NCBI RefSeq assembly: GCF_054482525.1
Contig: NZ_CM137006.1
Length of the DNA stretch: 64,000 nt
Direction: 5' to 3' (one strand)
The position numbers and the translations under genes are program-made. Below are positions 6,906 through 31,113 of the stretch, one piece after another (positions within the stretch are counted from its first letter, which is position 1; each line of letters starts with the position of its first letter). The notes under the pieces were generated by a model. The model was not told the origin of the DNA. It ran no database searches and worked only from the letters and a program-made list of their open reading frames with translations.

Positions 6906-7023
6906 GCTGCTTTCCTTTAAAAAACTATTTCTAAATCGACATGGGCAGTCGTTCTGTACACTTTGTTTTGTCAACGAGTTTGACTGCCAACACTGCACAG
7001 TTTTCCCCCAAAAGATGAAACAT

Positions 7024-7337
7024 TTGGGGCCATTTTGACTCATAGAGGAAAGCATCGCGCACAAACTTTTTCAGTTTATTTGTTGGCTTGATATTCTACC
7101 GTTATCTTTATTTATAGATTTTTATATTGCATGAGGTGGTTTTTGGAGAGAAGAATGAGGAAGTTGCTTCGAGACACAGAAACGTTAGCTTTACATTTAG
7201 CGGAGGTGATGTGAAATTAATTTACAAGAGAAATAATTTACATATCAAACAGTTAGATGCTTTTTGTCGTTTTTTAATATTTTTATGCTTGAGAAAAAAT
7301 ACGTAACTTATTTATGATATGGACAGTTTGGCCCCAA
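7024..7337. promoter_or_regulatory. fimS: fimS invertible phase-variation switch (314 bp), in phase-OFF orientation
   Basis: 9-bp inverted repeats ttggggcca (7024-7032) and tggccccaa (7329-7337). The internal promoter reads on the + strand, away from fimA. Confidence 0.9.
7289..7318 (+). promoter_or_regulatory. fimA promoter inside fimS, currently pointing toward fimE (OFF)
   Basis: -35 ttgaga (7289-7294), 18-nt spacer, -10 tatgat (7313-7318), adjacent to the inverted repeat at 7329. Confidence 0.75.
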
Positions 7338-7384
7338 TTGTCTTGTATTTATTTGTTTTTTAACTTTATTATCAATGAGTTAAA

Positions 7385-7981
7385 TCAAACCTCTTCTCTT
7401 TTTAATTTTTCGTTTATGAGATTATTTCTTTCCCATAATCCGGCAAAACGAGCAGCATTACTGGCGGTATAACGCACAGTATGGCGAATATTTCGATGCC
7501 CGAGATAATCCTGAATTAAACGGGTATCGGCACCACGCTCCGCCAGTTCATAACCACAAGCATGCCTTAACATATGAGGATGAGTCTGCGTTACGGTTCC
7601 AGCTTCAATACCGGCATCGCGAATAATGCGATAGGCCTGCTGGCGAGAAAGCCGACTCCCGCGGCGAGAAATAAATATAGCGTCGGTCCGGTCAGCGCCT
7701 TTCCAGTTAGCACGTTCCTGGGTCCAGCGTTCCACGGCTTCACGCTCATCAAAACGTAACGGGTGAACGGTAGAAAATCCGTTCTTCAGTCGGCGAATAT
7801 TTATTCGACCTTCATTAAGGTCAAGGTCCTGATAATGCAGATCAAGCAGTTCACTAATACGCATCCCATGCCGATATGCCAACAGAATAAGACAATAATC
7901 TCTGGCTCCCGTTGCCCCGTAACAAACCGCCTGCATCATGGCCTGAACTTCTTTACCGGTAAGATAACGACGTTTACTCAC
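7385..7981 (-). CDS. fimE: Tyrosine recombinase FimE (ON-to-OFF switching)
   Basis: 198 aa; MSKRRYLTGKEVQAMMQAV...; HxLRH and RHTVRYT recombinase motifs. Confidence 0.97.
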   Translation of the reverse strand: MSKRRYLTGKEVQAMMQAVCYGATGARDYCLILLAYRHGMRISELLDLHYQDLDLNEGRINIRRLKNGFSTVHPLRFDEREAVERWTQERANWKGADRTDAIFISRRGSRLSRQQAYRIIRDAGIEAGTVTQTHPHMLRHACGYELAERGADTRLIQDYLGHRNIRHTVRYTASNAARFAGLWERNNLINEKLKREEV

Positions 7982-21053: not shown

Positions 21054-22241
21054 TTATATTTCCTTATCAATCATAGCTTGGCGCAGTTGAATAATTTTCC
21101 CCAAGGATTCATTGTGCCTATAAATATTCTCATACGAACACTTAAACGTATTAATGATTGATGCTTGAATATCGAAGGGAGGAATAGGAATTTGAATTTT
21201 TAAAAAGTTATCTTTATTTATTTTCTTCATACTTCCGCTAGTTCCAGCAGCAATACCTTGAATAGCTCGACGGCCATATGGAGACATCAGATAGTACATT
21301 AAAAACTCTTTTTTAATAAATTTTTCGTCAACAGCCAATCTCCACATCGTGTCTGGGAAAATCGTATTCCCATTGCCAGTCGATCCTTTATATTTTCCAA
21401 CTAAACCAACCAACTCCGCTGTATTAGAACGAGAGATTAACAAATCACCATCATTGCATGTTTTTCCTTTTAAAAAATGATCTTCTGTAATATTTTTTAA
21501 AGTAGTTTCTCTGAATCCTGATTTCGACAAACTATTTAGGTTCAGGACATAGTACCCAGTCCCGACTGCGGTTTCAACAGGAGAATATCCCCCTTCTGGA
21601 GAATCAATTAAAACATCTTTAATAGAACCAAAAGTCCATCCAACCGGAAGAGGAACACATTTATTCTCCCTCGAATCAAAGTAGTTATCAAAAGTCCGTA
21701 GACCAATAGCATATAATAATCTTTTAGCTGCTTTGAGAGCACTTAAATATAGAAGTTCTTTCTTTGCTAACGAATCAAAGATTATTAATGACGAGTATTG
21801 CTGTTCAATGCTCGGTATATTAACTTCTAGTTTATTTAAATCACTCCATTTTATTCGCGATGATAGCGAGCCGGCGGAATTTGCAATCACCTTTTCCATA
21901 AAAGAGGTTGATTGCATCAAGTGGGGTAAGTACCCATCCAATAAGTAGTTGTTTTTCCTTGGTTTAATTACCATTGCATCAGCAGAGCAAATACCATTAA
22001 TAGGGCTCACCGACACCCTTTTTAAATATGTATTTCGTCTACTAAAAATTATTTCGCCACACTTTACCTTAAAGGCTTGTGTTTTCAATTCAACGTCAGC
22101 CCCCCAATCATGAACATAAAAATAACCAGATTTCAAATGTTCCAACCCAATAAAATGCTTAGCATCGTCGCTTGTTGGGGAGATTCTAACCATAACCTGT
22201 TCAGCAAGATCACCAAATGTAACATTTCTTTTATTATTCAT
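21054..22241 (-). CDS. hsdS: Type I R-M specificity subunit HsdS (two TRDs)
   Basis: 395 aa from MNNKRNVTFGDL. Two TRD-like halves separated by a helical spacer. AT-rich. Overlaps the hsdM stop. Confidence 0.88.
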   Translation of the reverse strand: MNNKRNVTFGDLAEQVMVRISPTSDDAKHFIGLEHLKSGYFYVHDWGADVELKTQAFKVKCGEIIFSRRNTYLKRVSVSPINGICSADAMVIKPRKNNYLLDGYLPHLMQSTSFMEKVIANSAGSLSSRIKWSDLNKLEVNIPSIEQQYSSLIIFDSLAKKELLYLSALKAAKRLLYAIGLRTFDNYFDSRENKCVPLPVGWTFGSIKDVLIDSPEGGYSPVETAVGTGYYVLNLNSLSKSGFRETTLKNITEDHFLKGKTCNDGDLLISRSNTAELVGLVGKYKGSTGNGNTIFPDTMWRLAVDEKFIKKEFLMYYLMSPYGRRAIQGIAAGTSGSMKKINKDNFLKIQIPIPPFDIQASIINTFKCSYENIYRHNESLGKIIQLRQAMIDKEI

Positions 22242-23739
22242 TATTATATTTCTCTCTATCAATTTCATAGCCAATGCTATCCAAGCTATCAAACAATACC
22301 TTGATATTTCTTTTGAGTTTTACGCTACTGACTTTCCATGATTCGATAGCATGCTGAATATCATTCATTTTGACATTGTTTTGAGATTTCACATAAAGTG
22401 AAATCGATAAATTATAGAAATTTTCTTTAATAGCTTCGATATCCACTAAAGCGGTTATGTCGTTTTTTTTCTCCGGATTAAAATAAGCCTCGCATAATAC
22501 TTCCAAATCATCATCAGATAGGCGACTATGGGCACGTTCACGGGTAACATACTCAACCCCGTTGATAAACAAAACCTTATTTTTGCGTTCAGCAGGTTTA
22601 TTGCAATTAAGCACCACCAAGCAAGATTCCATCGGCGAGTTGTAAAACAGATTTGGTCCCAAACCAATCACCGCTTCGATTATGTCGGATTCAATCACCT
22701 GTTTACGAATGGCTTGTTCAGAATCACGGAACAGTACACCATGCGGCCAGAGCATGGCAGCACGACCGGTGTCGGGTTTTAAACTTTTGATTATATGGGT
22801 ATAAAACGCATAATCAGCACAACCTTGTGGAGGCACGCCATAGAGATTACGCCCATAGGGATCGGCTGCAAACTTGTCACGATTCCATTTCTTAATGGAG
22901 TATGGTGGGTTAGCAAAAATCACATCAAACTGCTTGAGCCGATCGTTTTCAATAAACTTTGGCTCAGCCAAAGTATCACCACGCAGCACATCAAACTCTT
23001 CAATATCATGCAGGAACATATTCATACGAGCAATAGCGGAAGTCAGCAGGTTCACTTCCTGACCATAAAGGTGCACAGAGCGCCACTCTTCTCCTCTTGC
23101 ACGAAGATCCATCACTGCATTTAGCAACATCCCTCCAGTGCCACACGTTGGATCATAGGCTGTTTCACCCGGTTTTAAGCCCATAATGCGCGTCATTAAA
23201 TGCACGACTGTTCGGTTGGTGTAGAACTCTGCTGCCGTATGACCGGAATCATCAGCGAACTTTTTAATCAGGTATTCGTAGGCCTCACCAAGATCATCCT
23301 GAGCGACAGATTTAATACCGAGCGGTATTTTACTGAAATGTTCAATCAGATCAGCCAGCAGATGATCGGGCAGGCGCTCTTTATTGGTCCACTGCGCATC
23401 ACCGAAGACGCCATGTAAACGCGGATTATTGGCTTCAATTAGTCGAAGCGCATTCTGGATCGCTTCACCAATGTTTTTACTGGTATTGCGTACCTTTTCC
23501 CAACTGGCTTCAGAGGGAATATTGAAACGGTGAAACATCGGCATGGCGGCATATTCAGCATCACCTTCATGGAGTTCCAGCGCTTCGTTATATTCTTCCA
23601 GATAGACATCTGACAGGCGTTTGTAAAACAGCAACGGGAAGATATACTGCTTGTAGTCTGATGCGTCAATTTGGCCACGAAGAAATTCGGCGGCTCCCCA
23701 GAGCAGCTCTTCCAGCTTTTTATTACTCATAGTACTCAT
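22234..23739 (-). CDS. hsdM: Type I R-M methyltransferase subunit, distal paralog (HsdM-2)
   Basis: HsdM N-terminal domain; EFYTNRTVV; DPTCGTGGML; ANPPYSIKKW. ATGA overlap with the upstream hsdM paralog. Confidence 0.9.
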   Translation of the reverse strand: MSTMSNKKLEELLWGAAEFLRGQIDASDYKQYIFPLLFYKRLSDVYLEEYNEALELHEGDAEYAAMPMFHRFNIPSEASWEKVRNTSKNIGEAIQNALRLIEANNPRLHGVFGDAQWTNKERLPDHLLADLIEHFSKIPLGIKSVAQDDLGEAYEYLIKKFADDSGHTAAEFYTNRTVVHLMTRIMGLKPGETAYDPTCGTGGMLLNAVMDLRARGEEWRSVHLYGQEVNLLTSAIARMNMFLHDIEEFDVLRGDTLAEPKFIENDRLKQFDVIFANPPYSIKKWNRDKFAADPYGRNLYGVPPQGCADYAFYTHIIKSLKPDTGRAAMLWPHGVLFRDSEQAIRKQVIESDIIEAVIGLGPNLFYNSPMESCLVVLNCNKPAERKNKVLFINGVEYVTRERAHSRLSDDDLEVLCEAYFNPEKKNDITALVDIEAIKENFYNLSISLYVKSQNNVKMNDIQHAIESWKVSSVKLKRNIKVLFDSLDSIGYEIDREKYNNE

Positions 23740-25235
23740 ACCTCGAACCCTTCTTTGATAAGCAGGGCCTCCAGCTCCTCTTCTGCTTTTTCCAGCTCAG
23801 CCAGCTTCCGTTGAAAATCTTTGAGCGCCTCTTCCACAGTGATGGTTTCTTCTTCGAGTGGCTTTTGCACATAACGAGCAATATTTAGATTGAAGTCATT
23901 TTCTTCAATCTCCTTCAGAGGAACCCAGCGTGCAACGCCTTCGATTTCTTTTGCATCTGGCCCTTGTTGCGCCTGGTCATGATAGATTTGGTATATTTCA
24001 TCGGCCTGCTTGTTGGACAGCGTATTCTGCGCACGTCCCTTGGTATAGATTTCTTCAGCATTGATGATCAATACATGATCTTTATGCGCGGCCGGACGTG
24101 ATTTACGCAGCACCAAAATACACGCAGGAATCCCAGTTCCATAGAACAGGTTGGAAGCAACACCAATAATCGCCACAATGCGATTCTCTTGCAGTAATTT
24201 GGTTCGAATTGCCCCCTCTGCGCCGCCACGAAACAGCACACCATGAGGTAATACGACTGCCATACGTCCATTGTCGTTAAGTGAAGCAAACATATGCTGC
24301 ACCCAGGCAAAATCACCATTTGTTTTAGGCGCCAGGCCATATTGCTTACGGCCATAGGGATCGTTCGACCACAGATCGTATCCCCATTCTTTTAAGCTAA
24401 ACGGTGGGTTGGCAACAACGCAGTCAAAGGTTTCTAAACGATCGCTTTTTAAAAATTTAGGTTCGCGTAAAGTATCCCCTCGGACAATATCGAAATCTTC
24501 CTGTCCATGCAGGAACAGATTCATACGCGCAATAGCTTCCGTCGTTAAGTTCTTTTCCTGACCCTTGATTTTTAGTAAACGCGGATCACCACCATTTTCT
24601 TTTACATGGTGGATGGTCTCAAGCAGCATACCACCGGTACCACAGGCGGGATCGTAGACACTCTCACCGGCTTTTGGATCAAGAATGTTAACCATCAAAC
24701 GAACGATAGTTCGTGGGGTATAGAACTCACCTGCTTTCTTATTGGCTTTGTCTGCAAAGCGTTTGATCAGATACTCGTATGCGCGCCCCATATCATCGTC
24801 ACGGACACTAGAAACGCCAAGGTTCACCTTATTGAAGTGATTGAGTAACGTAGCCAGTAACTCATCAGAAAGGCGTTCTTTATTGGTCCAGCTGGCATCG
24901 CCAAAAATGCCATGCAGTTTAGGGTTTGCCAGTTCTATACCACGGAAGGACTCTTTTAAAGCCTGACCGATGTCCTTGGTCTCAGCGAAAACATCGCGCC
25001 AGTGGCAATTTTCAGGTATCTGAATACGGTGAAACATCTTGCCCTTGGCAAGCTCTGCATCCCCAACGCTCTCCATCGCATCAGCAAATTCTTCGTCATA
25101 CACGTCACAAATGCGCTTGAAGAACAAGATGGGGAAAATGTACGTTTTGTAATCTGACGCATCAATGGGCCCTGTAATAATATGGGCTGCATGCCATAGA
25201 TGGGCCTCGAGATCTTTTAGGTTAATCAGTGTCAT
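23736..25235 (-). CDS. hsdM: Type I R-M methyltransferase subunit, proximal paralog (HsdM-1)
   Basis: 499 aa from MTLINLKDLEAHLWHAA; EFYTPRTIV; DPACGTGGML; ANPPFSLKEW; C-terminal coiled coil. The ORF-track extension was trimmed. Confidence 0.9.
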   Translation of the reverse strand: MTLINLKDLEAHLWHAAHIITGPIDASDYKTYIFPILFFKRICDVYDEEFADAMESVGDAELAKGKMFHRIQIPENCHWRDVFAETKDIGQALKESFRGIELANPKLHGIFGDASWTNKERLSDELLATLLNHFNKVNLGVSSVRDDDMGRAYEYLIKRFADKANKKAGEFYTPRTIVRLMVNILDPKAGESVYDPACGTGGMLLETIHHVKENGGDPRLLKIKGQEKNLTTEAIARMNLFLHGQEDFDIVRGDTLREPKFLKSDRLETFDCVVANPPFSLKEWGYDLWSNDPYGRKQYGLAPKTNGDFAWVQHMFASLNDNGRMAVVLPHGVLFRGGAEGAIRTKLLQENRIVAIIGVASNLFYGTGIPACILVLRKSRPAAHKDHVLIINAEEIYTKGRAQNTLSNKQADEIYQIYHDQAQQGPDAKEIEGVARWVPLKEIEENDFNLNIARYVQKPLEEETITVEEALKDFQRKLAELEKAEEELEALLIKEGFEV

Positions 25236-25478
25236 TGTTGTCTCTTTTCGATCCTGCAGTGCTTGAACTCTCAGCAACTCATGGATTTCACAGTAAAAAA
25301 GCAAGCAAAGCGATTCCACAACCACCTGAGCGTTCAATACGTATGACGCCTTTACCCAAGTTGCTTAAATCAAGGAAATTGCCAGAGATAATACTCTGGC
25401 ATCAGAATGATACCAAGTTGAAGGGCTGATTTCCGCATCAATACCTTGTGGTAATAGGGGATTACTCTTTTACCCTTA

Positions 25479-26296
25479 TTGGCGCAAAATGGCGGCATTT
25501 ACTCATTTCTCCATCGGAGCATCTTACGCGCTATAACCACTCTCGTTTTTTCCTATTCCCATGCAGATGAAGCACTACGCAATGAACTTGAGAAGCATCT
25601 CTCCCCGCTGAAGCGAACCGGGAAGATCACAACATGGCACGATCGCCGCATCGTTCCTGGTCAGGAGTTCGAACGTCAGATCGACCACTATTTTTCGCAA
25701 GCAGATATCATCCTGATCCTGATCCTGATCCTGATCAGCAGTGACTTTATTGCTTCTGATTACTGCTATCAGGTAGAGATGAAAAACGCACTGGAACGGC
25801 ATGACCGGGGCGAGGCGGTGGTCATTCCGGTAATTTTAAGAAACTGTGCATGGCATCAGTTATAATTCGGCAGCATTATGGCGGCGACTATCGACGGTAA
25901 ACCCATCACTAAGTTTGCCACCCACGATGAAGGCTACGTTCAGGTCGTCGAGGCCGTCTCGCGTGCCATTGCCCGGATGGAAGCCAAAAAACTACAGCAA
26001 ACCATACATATCCCTTCACCGGCTCCGGCGAATCCGATCTTTTAGGGAGTAGATTCCGTTTTTACACCGCGTTCAAGCAACCTTACTCTATCTGTTATAG
26101 CCAGGATAATGTTGTTCGAAACAGTATTAACGAAATTGTAAGCCTTGCTGATAACGGCCAGACTCTTGGTTTTCGTGCTCTGATGGGAGGCTTCAGTCGT
26201 GGAACTTCACGAGACGAACTATTGACCAATGAAGGTATGTCGGAACATCTCTGGGAAATGTTCTTCGGGCTAATCAAGCAAAGAATGTCCCGATAA
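25479..26296 (+). pseudogene. Disrupted TIR-domain protein gene
   Basis: TIR signature VFSYSHADEALRNELEKHL...SSDFIASDYC...VIPVILRNCAW. In-frame TAA at 25863 and TAG at 26043. The likely ATG at 25489 is out of frame. The C-terminal part (..ADNGQTLGFRALMGG..KQRMSR*) is readable only in frame +2. Confidence 0.8.
25710..25736 (+). repeat. Hexanucleotide tandem repeat (atcctg x4.5) inside the TIR gene
   Basis: atcctgatcctgatcctgatcctgatc, translated ILILILILI within a conserved TIR strand. Confidence 0.95.
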
Positions 26297-26311
26297 TTTG
26301 CCATATCACAG

Positions 26312-26333
26312 TCGGGCATACTGCCCGATTTTT
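26312..26333 (+). terminator. Rho-independent terminator of the TIR gene
   Basis: tcgggca-tac-tgcccga followed by ttttt, 16 nt after the frame +2 stop codon. Confidence 0.75.
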
Positions 26334-26444
26334 GTGCTGTCATTATTGGCAATATCTCAATAGGCGTTGAGAAATGGTGCAATTTAATCTTGCCAGAGCG
26401 CTGTTACTTGGGGACGAAATGAATGGGCTCCTGCTGTAGTTACA

Positions 26445-26476
26445 GCAACGCCTGTATATACAAAAACAGGCGTTGC
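26445..26476. terminator. Strong hairpin just downstream of the Mrr-like gene
   Basis: gcaacgcctgt / acaggcgttgc 11-bp stem; weak U-tract. Confidence 0.5.
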
Positions 26477-26480
26477 AAAT

Positions 26481-27476
26481 TCATGCAGGCAAATACGTTT
26501 TCTTAAGCGGCACCAACAGCTTAGTTTCAATATCCACCTGCTCATAGTTTTCCACTAACGCGCGTACCAAATCGTCCAGCGTCCATAGCGTCAACGGGAT
26601 TGTAGAACGATCGGCCTCATAACGCGCATCCTTGCTGAATCCGCCGGTACTAACATACAGCCCGCGATCGTCTTTATGACGGCCACCGATAAAGCTACGG
26701 ATTTGCTGGCTGCTCATCTGTTCCCGCCGGTGCTTCACCTCAACAATAATGCGCGGATTTTCAAACCCAAATCCGTCAGGCGAAGCAATGATGTCTTTCC
26801 CACGGTCAGCACCCGCAGGCGATACCTGAGTTTTATATCCCATGCTGCGTAACACGCCAGCGACCAGATTCTGCATCTCATCCCAGTCGAGACGGTTGAT
26901 ACGATCCTTGATGCCTTCAAAAGCGATCATTTCCATGTCGCGCAGAGGATTAGAAACGACCTCATCCTCTTCACCTGAAACAGGTACTTCCGGCACGATA
27001 TCTGAGACAGGCTTATTGCCCTGCACTAATTCATTCACAGCAAAATCAGGCACCTGAAAAACTGTCAGCGTTGAACCAAGGGTGTTTCTGGTTGCATCAC
27101 TCAGACTATCGCGCTTAATCTCTTCCGCATTCCACTTCACTTTACGGGCGATGCCCATGCCATCTTCAAGCCACTCGGCATGAAACTCAAAATCTGACGC
27201 TATTTTCCCTATTAAATAGGTCCGATTAGAAGGTGAATAAGTGATAGCCCAGTCGCCTTTCTGCATTTCATTCACAAAGCGCCAGACCTGAGAAGCTCCA
27301 GAACGAACTGTGCCTGGCTTAGTCTGTGGCTCAAGCTCCTGATACCGGGTAAACAACTGCTCTCTTGAGCATCCAGGTTTCACATAGGGAGCGAGCTGCG
27401 ACCAACCAATTGCAACAACCTGTTTGTCTCTGAAGTCGTCGTACAATTTTCCGCCATCACCGCGGATCATCCACAT
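26481..27476 (-). CDS. Mrr-like (type IV) restriction endonuclease with N-terminal uncharacterised domain
   Basis: C-terminal Mrr_cat-like block (RGKDIIAS...IIVEVKHRRE..STGGFSKDA). Start chosen at MWMIRGDGGKLY; the ORF-track extension overlaps the upstream gene. Confidence 0.8.
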   Translation of the reverse strand: MWMIRGDGGKLYDDFRDKQVVAIGWSQLAPYVKPGCSREQLFTRYQELEPQTKPGTVRSGASQVWRFVNEMQKGDWAITYSPSNRTYLIGKIASDFEFHAEWLEDGMGIARKVKWNAEEIKRDSLSDATRNTLGSTLTVFQVPDFAVNELVQGNKPVSDIVPEVPVSGEEDEVVSNPLRDMEMIAFEGIKDRINRLDWDEMQNLVAGVLRSMGYKTQVSPAGADRGKDIIASPDGFGFENPRIIVEVKHRREQMSSQQIRSFIGGRHKDDRGLYVSTGGFSKDARYEADRSTIPLTLWTLDDLVRALVENYEQVDIETKLLVPLKKTYLPA

Positions 27477-27597: not shown

Positions 27598-30500
27598 CTA
27601 AACCTGACGCCTCTCAAGACTATTATAAATAGCCTCAATTTCACCTTTCAGGTTATCACCAGAGTAAACCATCGATGTATCGTATCGTTCATATCGCGCT
27701 TCCCGTGTCGCACTAAACCAGTTGAACGATCCCACGCATAGCAAACCATCATCACCAATAACAATTTTGCTATGAACACGGTTTACCAGCTTTGTAGCAA
27801 TACCCAGCGCATTCAGTTTCTCCAGCGCCGCTTTAAGGTTCTGCTGCTTCTCTTTTCGCTTCTCAAAATCTTTATGTTCAGTGTTGTAGCTTCTGTCAGT
27901 GACTATCGTGACGTTAATACCACGTGAACACGCCGCAATCATGGAATCAAGAAAACCCGTTTGCTCCAGCTTTTGCCAGGTCAGCCATGGAGAAACTATC
28001 GTGATGTGTTTATCGGTATTTTCAAACGTCTGATTCAGGAAATTATCATGCTGCTCCACACCATGGAGTGTGTAGATTTTGGTCTCGGAAGTTTTTAAAT
28101 CCTTACGCTCTTTATAATCAAAAGAGAGCGCATTCTTCTCGGACTCAAAGAGATATTTTGCCAGTAATCCCCGCGGAGATGAGGGAGGCTGGATCTCAAA
28201 CAGATCCATATCGCCGAAGACCAGGAAGCTATCCTTCGCACGGGAGACTGCAACATTCAGCATGCTGTTATCGCTATCAATAAACCCGCCATCTTCATGT
28301 TTTGAATAGACTGGCGAGAATATAACAATCGCTCTTTCCGCTCCCTGAAGAGAGTGCACGGTGCCCACGGTGAGCGACTTTTCATTCGCGCCCGTACTGA
28401 TACCTTGTTTACCCAGCGCCTGTTTGATAGTGGATACCTGCGCGCTAAAAGGCGTCACGATACCGACAACTTCATGAAGCGATTTGCCGTAATGCGCTTC
28501 AATATTTTGCTGGTTCTCTGCCAACCAGGCCGCTATCGTTTCAGCCTCAAGCAAATTATATCTACTTCCACTACTTGCCAGCTCTCCTTTACCATCAATA
28601 TGGAGATAACCCATTGCGGGCATTAAATTGCTCTCTTCGCGCCCTCTTTTAGGCAACAACTTACCGTGATAGCAGAGCGTATTACAGTATCCAATAATAT
28701 TATCGAAGCACCGGCGGTGTTCATATAGGTACATACCACGAGCCAGTTCGGGATCATATTGATAGCGCGAAGCAAACTGCGCTATTTTCATAACGCTGCC
28801 AGATGCGGCACTTTTACCAAGGTCTGCGATTGCCGTATATTTCTCGGTAATCTCTTCTTGCGTACTGCCAGACAGAATTTTTTCCGCAAGCATGTTACCG
28901 ACATCAATCGCGGGAGCAATACTCCATATTGGCGGGATCTGCTCCGTATCGCCAATCACTAATGCCTTCTTAGCTAATGCAAACGAGGCAGCAGCCACTT
29001 CAGGAAGCACCTGCCCGGCTTCATCGACAATGAGTAAATCGGCAAAATCATACAAATAACTTTTCTCGAATTTACGTTGTCCTTTGTGCTCACTTATCTG
29101 CATATTGCCGGGCAGCATATAGCATGTCATCACCACACATGGAGTGAGTTTCATTCGACGTTGCCAACGGGCGGTTACCCCTTTAGCGCCTTTTTTCTTC
29201 TTCTCTTCCTGCAGATCATCAATTCTGGCCATATCCATCAGCCAACGACCTTCCCAGTAGTGAGTCGTCAGTAAAAATGCAGGGAAGCGAATCTGCGTAT
29301 CAGCCAGTTCATCGGCCTGTGAGAAGCTCAGTTCCTCGTCGCCCTCATACCCTAAATCAAATGCCAGCCTCTGCCACTCCTGAACCGCCTGCTGTTCTTT
29401 AAGAACGATTTCATGGGCGGAGTCAATCTGCTGCCGGTATGTTGTTTGCTCGCGCTCAGCGGAATTGAGCAGCCCATCAATATTACGTTCGATAGTTTCA
29501 GGATCAGACCACTGATTTCCTGCAATCAGCGCGCCTAATTTATCTTCGAGAAACAACTGTATTTGGTACTGTCGCTTACTACGAACCGCTGGGAGCCAGG
29601 AAAATAATGAATAGATCAGTGATTCACCGGCGCGATATTTTTTCCATTCCGTTTTAGCACTCTTCAGTAGAGTGACTTTTTGTTCTTGTCCGGAAAGTAA
29701 TTTATTTAAATTATCGAGATATTGCTCAATGTCGTTAGCAATAAGCTCACGCGCAGCCCGTACCTGGCTTAACGTTTGCCATGTTGCGTTCAGTCTTATC
29801 AGTTGCTCGGATTTTGCTGCCAACTGACCATGCAGGAGTTCAATGACCTTTTCAGGGGATGAACACTCTTTTTCAGGAAAAGCTGCCTTAGCTTTCTCGA
29901 GATAAAACAGCAGTGCATCCTCTACATACTCTTTTGACTCAACCTGGTTGAAGAAATCTTCAGTTTGATATTTTTTGGCTGCCTCAGCTTTACGAGTGCT
30001 TGAGGGAAAATAAGCGCCGAAGCTTTTCAGCTCTGGCAACCATCGTCCGGCCATCGCACCTGAACCTTGCGAAAAGTCTTTCCCGAATGCCTCAATAATG
30101 TTCGTTACAGCCTGGTTATTCGTTGAAGTCGCGATAATAACCGGAGGCTCAGATTTTTCGAGAGCTGCTCTGGCCCACTGCGTGGCGATGATAGAAAGCA
30201 CCAGCGTGGTTTTTCCGGTTCCCGGAGGTCCATTAACAGCAAGGATATCGCCATGTCTTGCATCCAGAAAATGGCTTAAGGCATCGCGCTGAGCCTTTGC
30301 CAGCGGAAACTTATCTCCGGAGTGTCCAAGCCTGTCGCTGAATTTTGCTCCTGGAGCCAGCAAAGACTCTGCAGCATGAACCTCTCGCGAGGCGAAGCGA
30401 TTGAAGAGCGGCACATCCTTCTTGCAAACAAGCAGGTGATCATAAAGAGAAAGGATATGGAAACTGGCACCGCCAGATTGCGCCGTTTTAACAATATAAC

Positions 30501-31113
30501 CGTGCTCAGCGAGTTCATATTGCTCAGGATTTTTAATCCAGTCGCCGGCAACGTTCTTCAGCAGCCTCTCTGAATCATCCAGATATTGATGCCACTCCTG
30601 CTGCAAGGCTGCATATCGTGCTTCCCGTTCTTCATCCGTTTCGGCAGTCTTATCAATGCTGTCATCAAAGTTGATAGAGAACGAGGTATGGATTGTCTTG
30701 TATTTGTCATACTGCCCAATCTCACCAATCGAAAATGCTCCTTTTGGCAAAGGTTCAAGCAGGTCTCTGGGAATGGAGGTCGCTGGCGTCGGATATAAAA
30801 AACCCTCACGGCTGAGCAAGGCTGGCGTCACTAGCGGGGTAACAATATCAGGTGCGCCTGCGGAACGGTCCTTACCATGCTGCAGTAACCGAAAATAAAC
30901 TTTTGGGCGCAAGACGACATCGACCGTTTCGACATCGTCTTTTTCTCCCTCAAAAAATTTACTGACAATCGCTTCGTCAAGACGTCCCGCCGCTATCCCA
31001 TGCCAGTGAGTGAAATTTTTGGCGTCTTTCCGTTCAAAACTGCCCTTTCCTGACTCAGCATCCGCAAGCGAGTTGCGCCAGTATGAGGCAAACCCTAAAG
31101 CATTTTCATCCAT
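27598..31113 (-). CDS. SF1 (DNA2/NAM7/COG1112-like) helicase with C-terminal PLD-family nuclease domain; type II Mokosh-like architecture
   Basis: Walker [10 protein letters not shown]; LIVDEAGQV; [17 protein letters not shown]-terminal single HKD motif HSKIVIGD plus GSFNW. 1171 aa. Confidence 0.85.

Follow-up and report, generated by a model that had tools for sequence, protein, structure and literature searches.

Nested lesions in a TIR-Y4lF pseudogene of an Escherichia coli defense island

How does a gene for a TIR-domain protein come to carry several disabling lesions inside an E. coli defense island? We address this question for a locus within a window of 64,000 nucleotides, the whole stretch of DNA that was analyzed (RefSeq assembly GCF_054482525.1, contig NZ_CM137006.1). 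An earlier note made from the sequence alone had read the gene as a TIR effector inactivated by at least four independent lesions, a pattern fitting selection against a toxic or orphaned protein. That the locus is a pseudogene is not new, as RefSeq already marks it as such: PGAP labels positions 25533-26296 "TIR domain-containing protein; frameshifted; internal stop" in both PCN033 and 19KM1776. The question is how the lesions relate to one another and to the loss of the gene.

The TIR-Y4lF family and its degraded member

The TIR signature described in the earlier note is real. The frame-0 translation of positions 25479-25862 matches Pfam TIR_2 (PF13676) with 44.6 bits against a cut-off of 28 (E 2.3e-11) and TIR (PF01582) with 26.5 bits against 21.3 (E 6.4e-06), and all the quoted motifs are present. 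With the same two models, the full-length E. coli allele reaches 53.3 and 31.9 bits. Such an allele is found at the equivalent locus of E. coli AR_0077 as an open gene of 327 codons (WP_024179470.1), to which full-length type the window copy is ~98% identical in nucleotides over the aligned part; its identity to Salmonella is 94%. The intact protein combines an N-terminal TIR_2 domain with a C-terminal domain labeled PF27176 "Y4lF" in a large protein database. TIR-Y4lF relatives of 321-329 aa occur throughout Enterobacterales, others with 42-65% identity are found in Pseudomonas, Halomonas, Stenotrophomonas, Rhizobiales, Acidobacteria and further groups, and the protein is encoded in 504 species-level genomes.

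The window copy is a degraded member of this family by descent and no intact one. Like the intact alleles of AR_0077 and Salmonella, it occupies the island position between hsdM and an Mrr-like nuclease and retains the same TIR motifs, including Glu78. Unlike them, it has no ATG, a core strand is lengthened by four residues, two stops interrupt the reading frame, codons 182-259 are missing and the downstream companion is gone. The two-domain architecture of ~320-330 aa is no longer intact.

Glu78, in the motif S-D-Y-C-Y-Q-V-E, is invariant in alignments of 16 and of 41 homologs, and its region aligns with the catalytic WCWDEL region of Cat1, a TIR enzyme of solved structure. A catalytic role for this residue is therefore predicted from the alignments. 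The conserved Glu falls within the pattern of enzymatic TIR domains (S-x-W/Y-C-x-x-E), which makes the protein of NADase type by prediction only. The fold was assessed on the Salmonella enterica ortholog (P0001, 95% identical) as modeled by AF2 and not on the broken window copy. In this model, a TIR fold is joined by a disordered linker (residues 150-187) to an alpha/beta C-terminal domain, with a pLDDT of ~80 for the TIR part, 65 overall and a pTM of 0.49; confidence is low for the linker and for a portion of the Y4lF domain, and moderate at best for the C-terminal domain as a whole. Foldseek matched the model to MAL, RPS4, RPP1, AbTir and the SPARTA TIR with probability 1.0, and there were no non-TIR structures among its matches, the Y4lF domain included. 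A profile search of PDB sequences returned the Cat1 TIR domain as its sole match. With a Pfam set that does not contain PF27176, the segments 25866-26042, 26046-26138 and 26048-26293 had no match. A literature search for "Y4lF" found nothing relevant, and the RefSeq protein accessions led to no papers.

Judging by homology, the intact protein would be an NAD+-consuming TIR protein, either effector or signal generator, whose trigger acts via the C-terminal domain. Family knowledge suggests that the Y4lF domain would sense a phage cue, upon which the TIR domains would assemble and cleave NAD+, leading to NAD+ depletion or to a nucleotide signal. Abortive infection would be the outcome.

Table 1. 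Positions of the pseudogene, its lesions and its neighbors in the window
Feature	Position	Strand	Basis or remark
hsdM, two in tandem, ~500 aa each, type I RM system	22234-23739; 23736-25235	-	
In-frame TTG, 18 codons upstream of family start	25479-25481	+	PGAP start in truncated alleles
GGAG Shine-Dalgarno, family-conserved, 13 nt before start	25516-25519	+	Leaders of relatives
Ancestral start codon, now ATA	25533-25535	+	ATG in every other species examined
TIR-Y4lF pseudogene, PPECC33_RS29570	25533-26296	+	PGAP extent, "frameshifted; internal stop"
Perfect (ATCCTG)x4.5 microsatellite	25710-25736	+	TRF score 54
GAG codon of Glu78, predicted catalytic Glu of TIR NADase motif	25776-25778	+	Invariance; Cat1 alignment
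Nonsense TAA, from GAA (Glu107); cuts TIR after fourth strand	25863-25865	+	PCN033 and 19KM1776 only
Nonsense TAG, from CAG (Gln167), in inter-domain linker	26043-26045	+	PCN033 and 19KM1776 only
Junction of 232-bp deletion	26088-26089	+	Y4lF codons 182-259 lost, frame shifted
Out-of-frame C-terminal remnant, I260-R327 plus stop	26090-26296	+	68 codons; stop at 26294-26296
Terminator-like hairpin and T-run	26310-26338	+	9-bp stem, -15.9 kcal/mol, z -3.2
Stub of 102-aa companion gene	26374-26439	+	18 homologous codons (26374-26427), deletion junction, early TAG
Mrr-like nuclease, intact	26481-27470	-	PADLOC PDC-S02, E 1.5e-80
MkoC of type II Mokosh, intact	27598-31113	-	PADLOC, 1690 bits

Three layers of lesions in one hundred genomes

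Six lesions were counted against the Salmonella ortholog and the 327-aa full-length relatives, in an alignment of the window copy with nine other E. coli alleles and Salmonella. They are the ATA start codon, a 336-bp deletion in the companion gene, a 232-bp deletion, a 12-bp gain in the repeat and the two nonsense codons, TAA and TAG. Their distribution forms three layers. The ATA start and the companion deletion are present in 100 of the 100 E. coli genomes that carry the allele; 42 of these also have the 232-bp deletion, which shifts the frame within the Y4lF domain; and two, PCN033 and 19KM1776, add the longer repeat and both stops, and they alone share a C to A change at 25501. Since the layers nest (100 > 42 > 2), by the time the stops and the expansion appeared the allele had already lost a third of its second domain. 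The count of at least four lesions in the earlier note is thus exceeded, but they are not independent knock-outs: most of them struck a gene that had died before.

The first layer concerns the start of the gene. An ATG at 25489, in a different frame from the TIR body, had been taken for a lesion; full-length alleles share this upstream sequence, and the true start lies at 25533, where the codon is now ATA. The ccGGAGcatcttacgcgct context that precedes the ATG is the same in Hafnia, Enterobacter, Mixta and also Salmonella. A 41-mer containing the ATA is present in exactly 100 complete E. coli genomes, which are all those carrying the allele, and its ATG version in none of the complete E. coli genomes. 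Fifty full-length E. coli alleles nevertheless remain open despite the ATA start. Compared with Salmonella, the full-length E. coli allele has a dN/dS of 0.15, and the two branches are symmetric (12 synonymous and 9 non-synonymous changes versus 11 and 9), which points to an ATA change that is recent or tolerated. Expression and function may have persisted in the ATA allele, and the first layer would then be no inactivation.

An upstream in-frame TTG, at which PGAP starts the truncated alleles, could serve as a make-shift start after loss of the ATG. It has no Shine-Dalgarno sequence at a usable distance (an AGGGGA is 17 nt upstream), and in Salmonella the corresponding TTG frame is closed by a TAA. 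The E. coli leader is 1 nt shorter than that of Salmonella (CAATAATGG to CAAAATGG; window 25479-25532 versus L101:2941-3000), and this removes the in-frame TAA and opens the TTG frame into the TIR gene. In E. coli BS15R-A (L107), PGAP starts the gene at an in-frame ATG that owes its existence to a T to G change and lies 24 codons ahead of the family start, at the equivalent of window 25461-25463; that allele is already dead, having the 232-bp deletion and a 1.5-copy repeat. A promoter scan found no more sites than in shuffled sequence.

The other element of the first layer is the loss of a partner, as the earlier note had suggested might be found. In several genera and strains, a companion gene of ~102 aa follows the TIR gene after ~17-80 nt: Salmonella, Rouxiella, Hafnia, Erwinia, Serratia quinivorans, Chimaeribacter, Enterobacter ludwigii, E. 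hormaechei, Enterobacillus, Pantoea, K. pneumoniae and E. coli R2. Only 18 of its codons survive in the window, the 336-bp deletion having taken the rest. None of the 100 E. coli alleles has the companion, and their coverage of the two-gene module of Salmonella does not exceed 78%. Between the pseudogene and the stub lies the terminator-like hairpin that had been noted after the gene, and Salmonella likewise has such a hairpin between its TIR gene and the companion. Intact, ATG-started TIR-Y4lF genes also occur without the companion in many species (for example L027-L033 and L036-L038).

Searches of 5.8 billion proteins place the companion in only 30 clusters, all from Enterobacterales, and it sits directly 3' of TIR-Y4lF in every context examined (L101:4061-4369, L010:8986-9306, L021:8018-8368, L108:5989-6312 and L112:4001-4321). 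Immediately upstream, E. coli R2 and K. pneumoniae have a 171-aa gene and a BrxR-like WYL regulator. Pfam and PADLOC found nothing significant in the 102-aa companion, the 171-aa upstream protein or a 157-aa alternative downstream protein.

The second layer explains the frame change near the 3' end. The reading of the last codons in another frame was right, over 68 codons, while the cause is the 232-bp deletion and no small indel. Microhomology at this deletion amounts to 2 bp only (TA). Differing flanking haplotypes raised the possibility that the deletion had arisen more than once; with so little microhomology a recurrent origin is unlikely, and recombination around a single deletion would be the simpler reading of the haplotypes. 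Of the 42 genomes that carry the deletion, ~30 still encode a 216-aa TIR-only product and have no further lesion.

Independent decay is also seen in other E. coli lineages. A 1-bp deletion in a C-run leads to a 237-aa product in a 1359-bp length class of eight genomes among the full-length alleles, two of which were confirmed by sequence. In strain A10, a CAA to TAA change at 25698 accompanies the 232-bp deletion and a 6-bp contraction of the repeat. In ~48 complete genomes (L002, L015-L019), PGAP treats the 216-aa and 237-aa truncation products as normal TIR genes; it also starts the full-length E. coli allele at its ATA codon. With truncations left unflagged and an ATA-started allele passing as intact, counts of TIR defense genes in E. 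coli are inflated.

Substitutions are no denser here than nearby: they amount to 0.5-1.3% in the pseudogene and 0.2-1.0% in neighboring genes, and local hypermutation was rejected on this ground. The adjacent Mrr-like nuclease differs by 10 substitutions between PCN033 and AR_0077 and its protein is identical, which indicates constraint next door and none at the pseudogene. Between the same two strains, divergence is 0.2% in the first hsdM, 8.7% in the second and 46% in hsdS.

Neutral decay, contingency and counter-selection

The microsatellite in the TIR domain is a perfect repeat, and its expansion does fall in a conserved beta-strand; the insertion is, however, limited to 12 bp (ILIL) over a 2.5-copy core common in E. 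coli, and not the nine residues first supposed. In Salmonella, the strand is encoded by ATC ATC CTG CTC CTG ATC (IILLLI), and all other species likewise encode IILLLI with non-repetitive codons. A single CTC to ATC change (L62I) in E. coli created ATCCTGATCCTGATC, that is, 2.5 copies. Slippage, as predicted, is seen in the population: of the 100 genomes, 90 carry 2.5 copies, eight 1.5 and two 4.5. The lengths of all 58 full-length alleles fit 2.5 copies, so that repeat-length variants number 10 among the 42 alleles with the 232-bp deletion and none among the 58 full-length ones; this background was assigned partly by subtraction, and sequences confirmed it in both genomes with 4.5 copies and in two of the eight with 1.5. 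The family-invariant IILLLI strand is a predicted core beta-strand (residues 59-64 in the AF2 model of the Salmonella ortholog), and both changes in length should therefore be destructive. The repeat thus offers a textbook case in which one substitution makes a microsatellite that slips both ways once constraint is lifted.

Could the lesions be something other than the marks of decay? The existence of three copy-number alleles in the population might suggest a contingency device of the kind used in phase or antigenic variation, tuning the protein through its repeat. This is highly improbable: slippage of a 6-bp unit cannot change the frame, the repeat is confined to E. coli, where one CTC to ATC change produced it, and the copy-number variants are restricted to alleles already wrecked by the 232-bp deletion. 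The repeat slips, but it is no switch, as its variation is frame-neutral and comes only after the death of the gene. That the stops and the frameshift are sequencing or assembly artifacts, or are recoded, with the gene really intact, is so improbable that we set it aside. Two independent complete assemblies from different countries and hosts, those of the porcine ExPEC strain PCN033 and of 19KM1776, isolated from a dog in Switzerland, show 100% identity across the 1141 bp around the pseudogene; base-for-base agreement of this kind shows that the features are real in the DNA. The stops that the earlier note pointed out are indeed present, yet they are not shared by intact homologs, which have sense codons at both positions. 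Moreover, 78 codons are physically absent through the 232-bp deletion, and an Rfam scan of 25200-26600 gave no match and revealed no recoding element. These are disabling lesions relative to intact orthologs, and the locus is a pseudogene.

The lesions, their order and their frequencies in the population can be read directly from the aligned genomes, and their nested distribution makes neutral decay the default reading. We put at about 0.8 the probability that the locus is the stepwise-decayed pseudogene of a stand-alone TIR-Y4lF defense-island gene, formed by neutral sequential decay. The ancestor would have encoded a 327-aa protein with a TIR domain bearing the catalytic-type Glu and a Y4lF domain, paired in this lineage with the 102-aa downstream gene. 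In the E. coli lineage of the island, the start would have changed from ATG to ATA and the companion gene would have been deleted; one sub-lineage would then have lost 232 bp of the Y4lF domain; and in this dead allele the PCN033 lineage would have gained the 12-bp slippage expansion and two nonsense mutations. The later lesions would accordingly represent neutral decay of a gene that was already non-functional.

Active counter-selection, by which loss of the companion and/or of the C-terminal domain would have left a deregulated NAD+-consuming TIR toxin whose truncation was favored, has more to recommend it and is still unlikely. Nonsense mutations are in excess in dead alleles: they account for two of three substitutions found only in the PCN033 lineage, against ~3-3.6% expected (P ~0.004-0.006), and three of the 18 singleton substitutions in the sampled dead alleles (P ~0.045), in both cases among alleles chosen for looking broken. 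This excess could mean that a truncated TIR remnant is still harmful and selected against. The gene has also been disrupted by at least three independent routes in one species, linkage of the companion to TIR-Y4lF is tight in all five genomic contexts examined, and there is a precedent in an E. coli TIR system that was disrupted by an IS when co-expressed with its trigger (PMC11350192). However, the nonsense excess is marginal and ascertainment-biased and the statistics are post hoc, so that selection against a toxic effector, as proposed in the earlier note, is not demonstrated. The TIR-only product kept by ~30 of the 42 deletion genomes argues that the remnant is not strongly toxic, and the intact companion-less genes common in other species argue that the companion is no obligatory antitoxin. 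A related reading, which we consider a long shot, is that TIR-Y4lF and the 102-aa gene, sometimes with the 171-aa upstream gene, form an uncharacterized anti-phage module of type I RM and BREX loci, and that loss of the partner left a mildly harmful orphan TIR in E. coli. If true, it would account for both the ATG to ATA down-mutation and the three to four or more independent disruptions within the species.

Genomic setting and relation to known defense systems

The pseudogene lies between a type I RM system (upstream, divergent) and an Mrr-like nuclease (downstream, convergent), the latter followed by a type II Mokosh system (Table 1). The nan/fim region and a CP4-like element adjoin the island. 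Positions 38000-64000 of the window (L005) hold this CP4-like element with other pseudogenes, copies of IS3, IS100 and IS2, cbtA/cbeA toxin-antitoxin genes and a dGTPase-family gene, and gene decay is common there.

Across 78 related loci from diverse bacteria, no neighbor family is common to more than 17. The most frequent neighbors are hsdM, hsdR and hsdS in Enterobacterales, and pglX, pglZ and brxL in Pseudomonas, Halomonas and Marinobacter. TIR-Y4lF is found between pglX and pglZ/brxL of type 1 BREX in Pseudomonas flavescens, Azoarcus, Halomonas, Nitrincola and Marinobacter (L042, L044, L045, L048, L050, L054 and L096; at ~7001-7960 in most, L042:3315-12723). A 2026 survey of BREX (PMC12839542) does not mention TIR. 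The pseudogene alone matters little, multi-lesion decay of a defense gene being expected and the locus being flagged by RefSeq; the lead that it opens is a candidate TIR-Y4lF/small-protein module embedded in RM and BREX loci of Proteobacteria and Acidobacteria.

Thoeris ThsB had been named as a possible relative; beyond features of the TIR domain itself, the comparison holds only at the level of a PADLOC model. Both proteins have a TIR domain with a catalytic-type Glu, and the full-length E. coli allele matches the PADLOC model PDLC00420, labeled "ThsB1", over positions 2-317 of 319 (E 2e-153). NCBIfam Thoeris models, in contrast to this strong PADLOC match, stay below their cut-off (type III ThcB4, 14.3 bits versus 220). 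Unlike ThsB, TIR-Y4lF has a C-terminal domain of its own and no universally conserved neighbor. In a Thoeris operon, ThsB stands beside ThsA (SIR2-SLOG or TM-Macro), an arrangement that is not found here: the annotation of the 64-kb window includes no ThsA-like gene, and comparison of neighbor families across the 78 related loci revealed no conserved ThsA-like partner. Going by this annotation and neighbor comparison, the locus is not a Thoeris system, and the most fitting description of TIR-Y4lF is that of a TIR effector, stand-alone or with a small partner, carried in RM and BREX loci.

A further parallel is offered by the TIR systems of E. coli. Wang et al. (2024) defined 64 TIR clusters and tested 32 from E. 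coli, of which 12 were active, single- and two-protein systems (TIR-I to TIR-IX) among them, with the TIR active-site residues required for defense (PMC11350192). Like TIR-Y4lF, these systems are chromosomal, reside in defense islands and consist of a single gene or of one with a small partner. As for its decay, the window copy displays the same nested deletions, nonsense mutations and slippage, with flanking genes intact, as defense-island pseudogenes in general. Nothing about it is unusual in this respect; it is well resolved because 100 genomes carry the allele.
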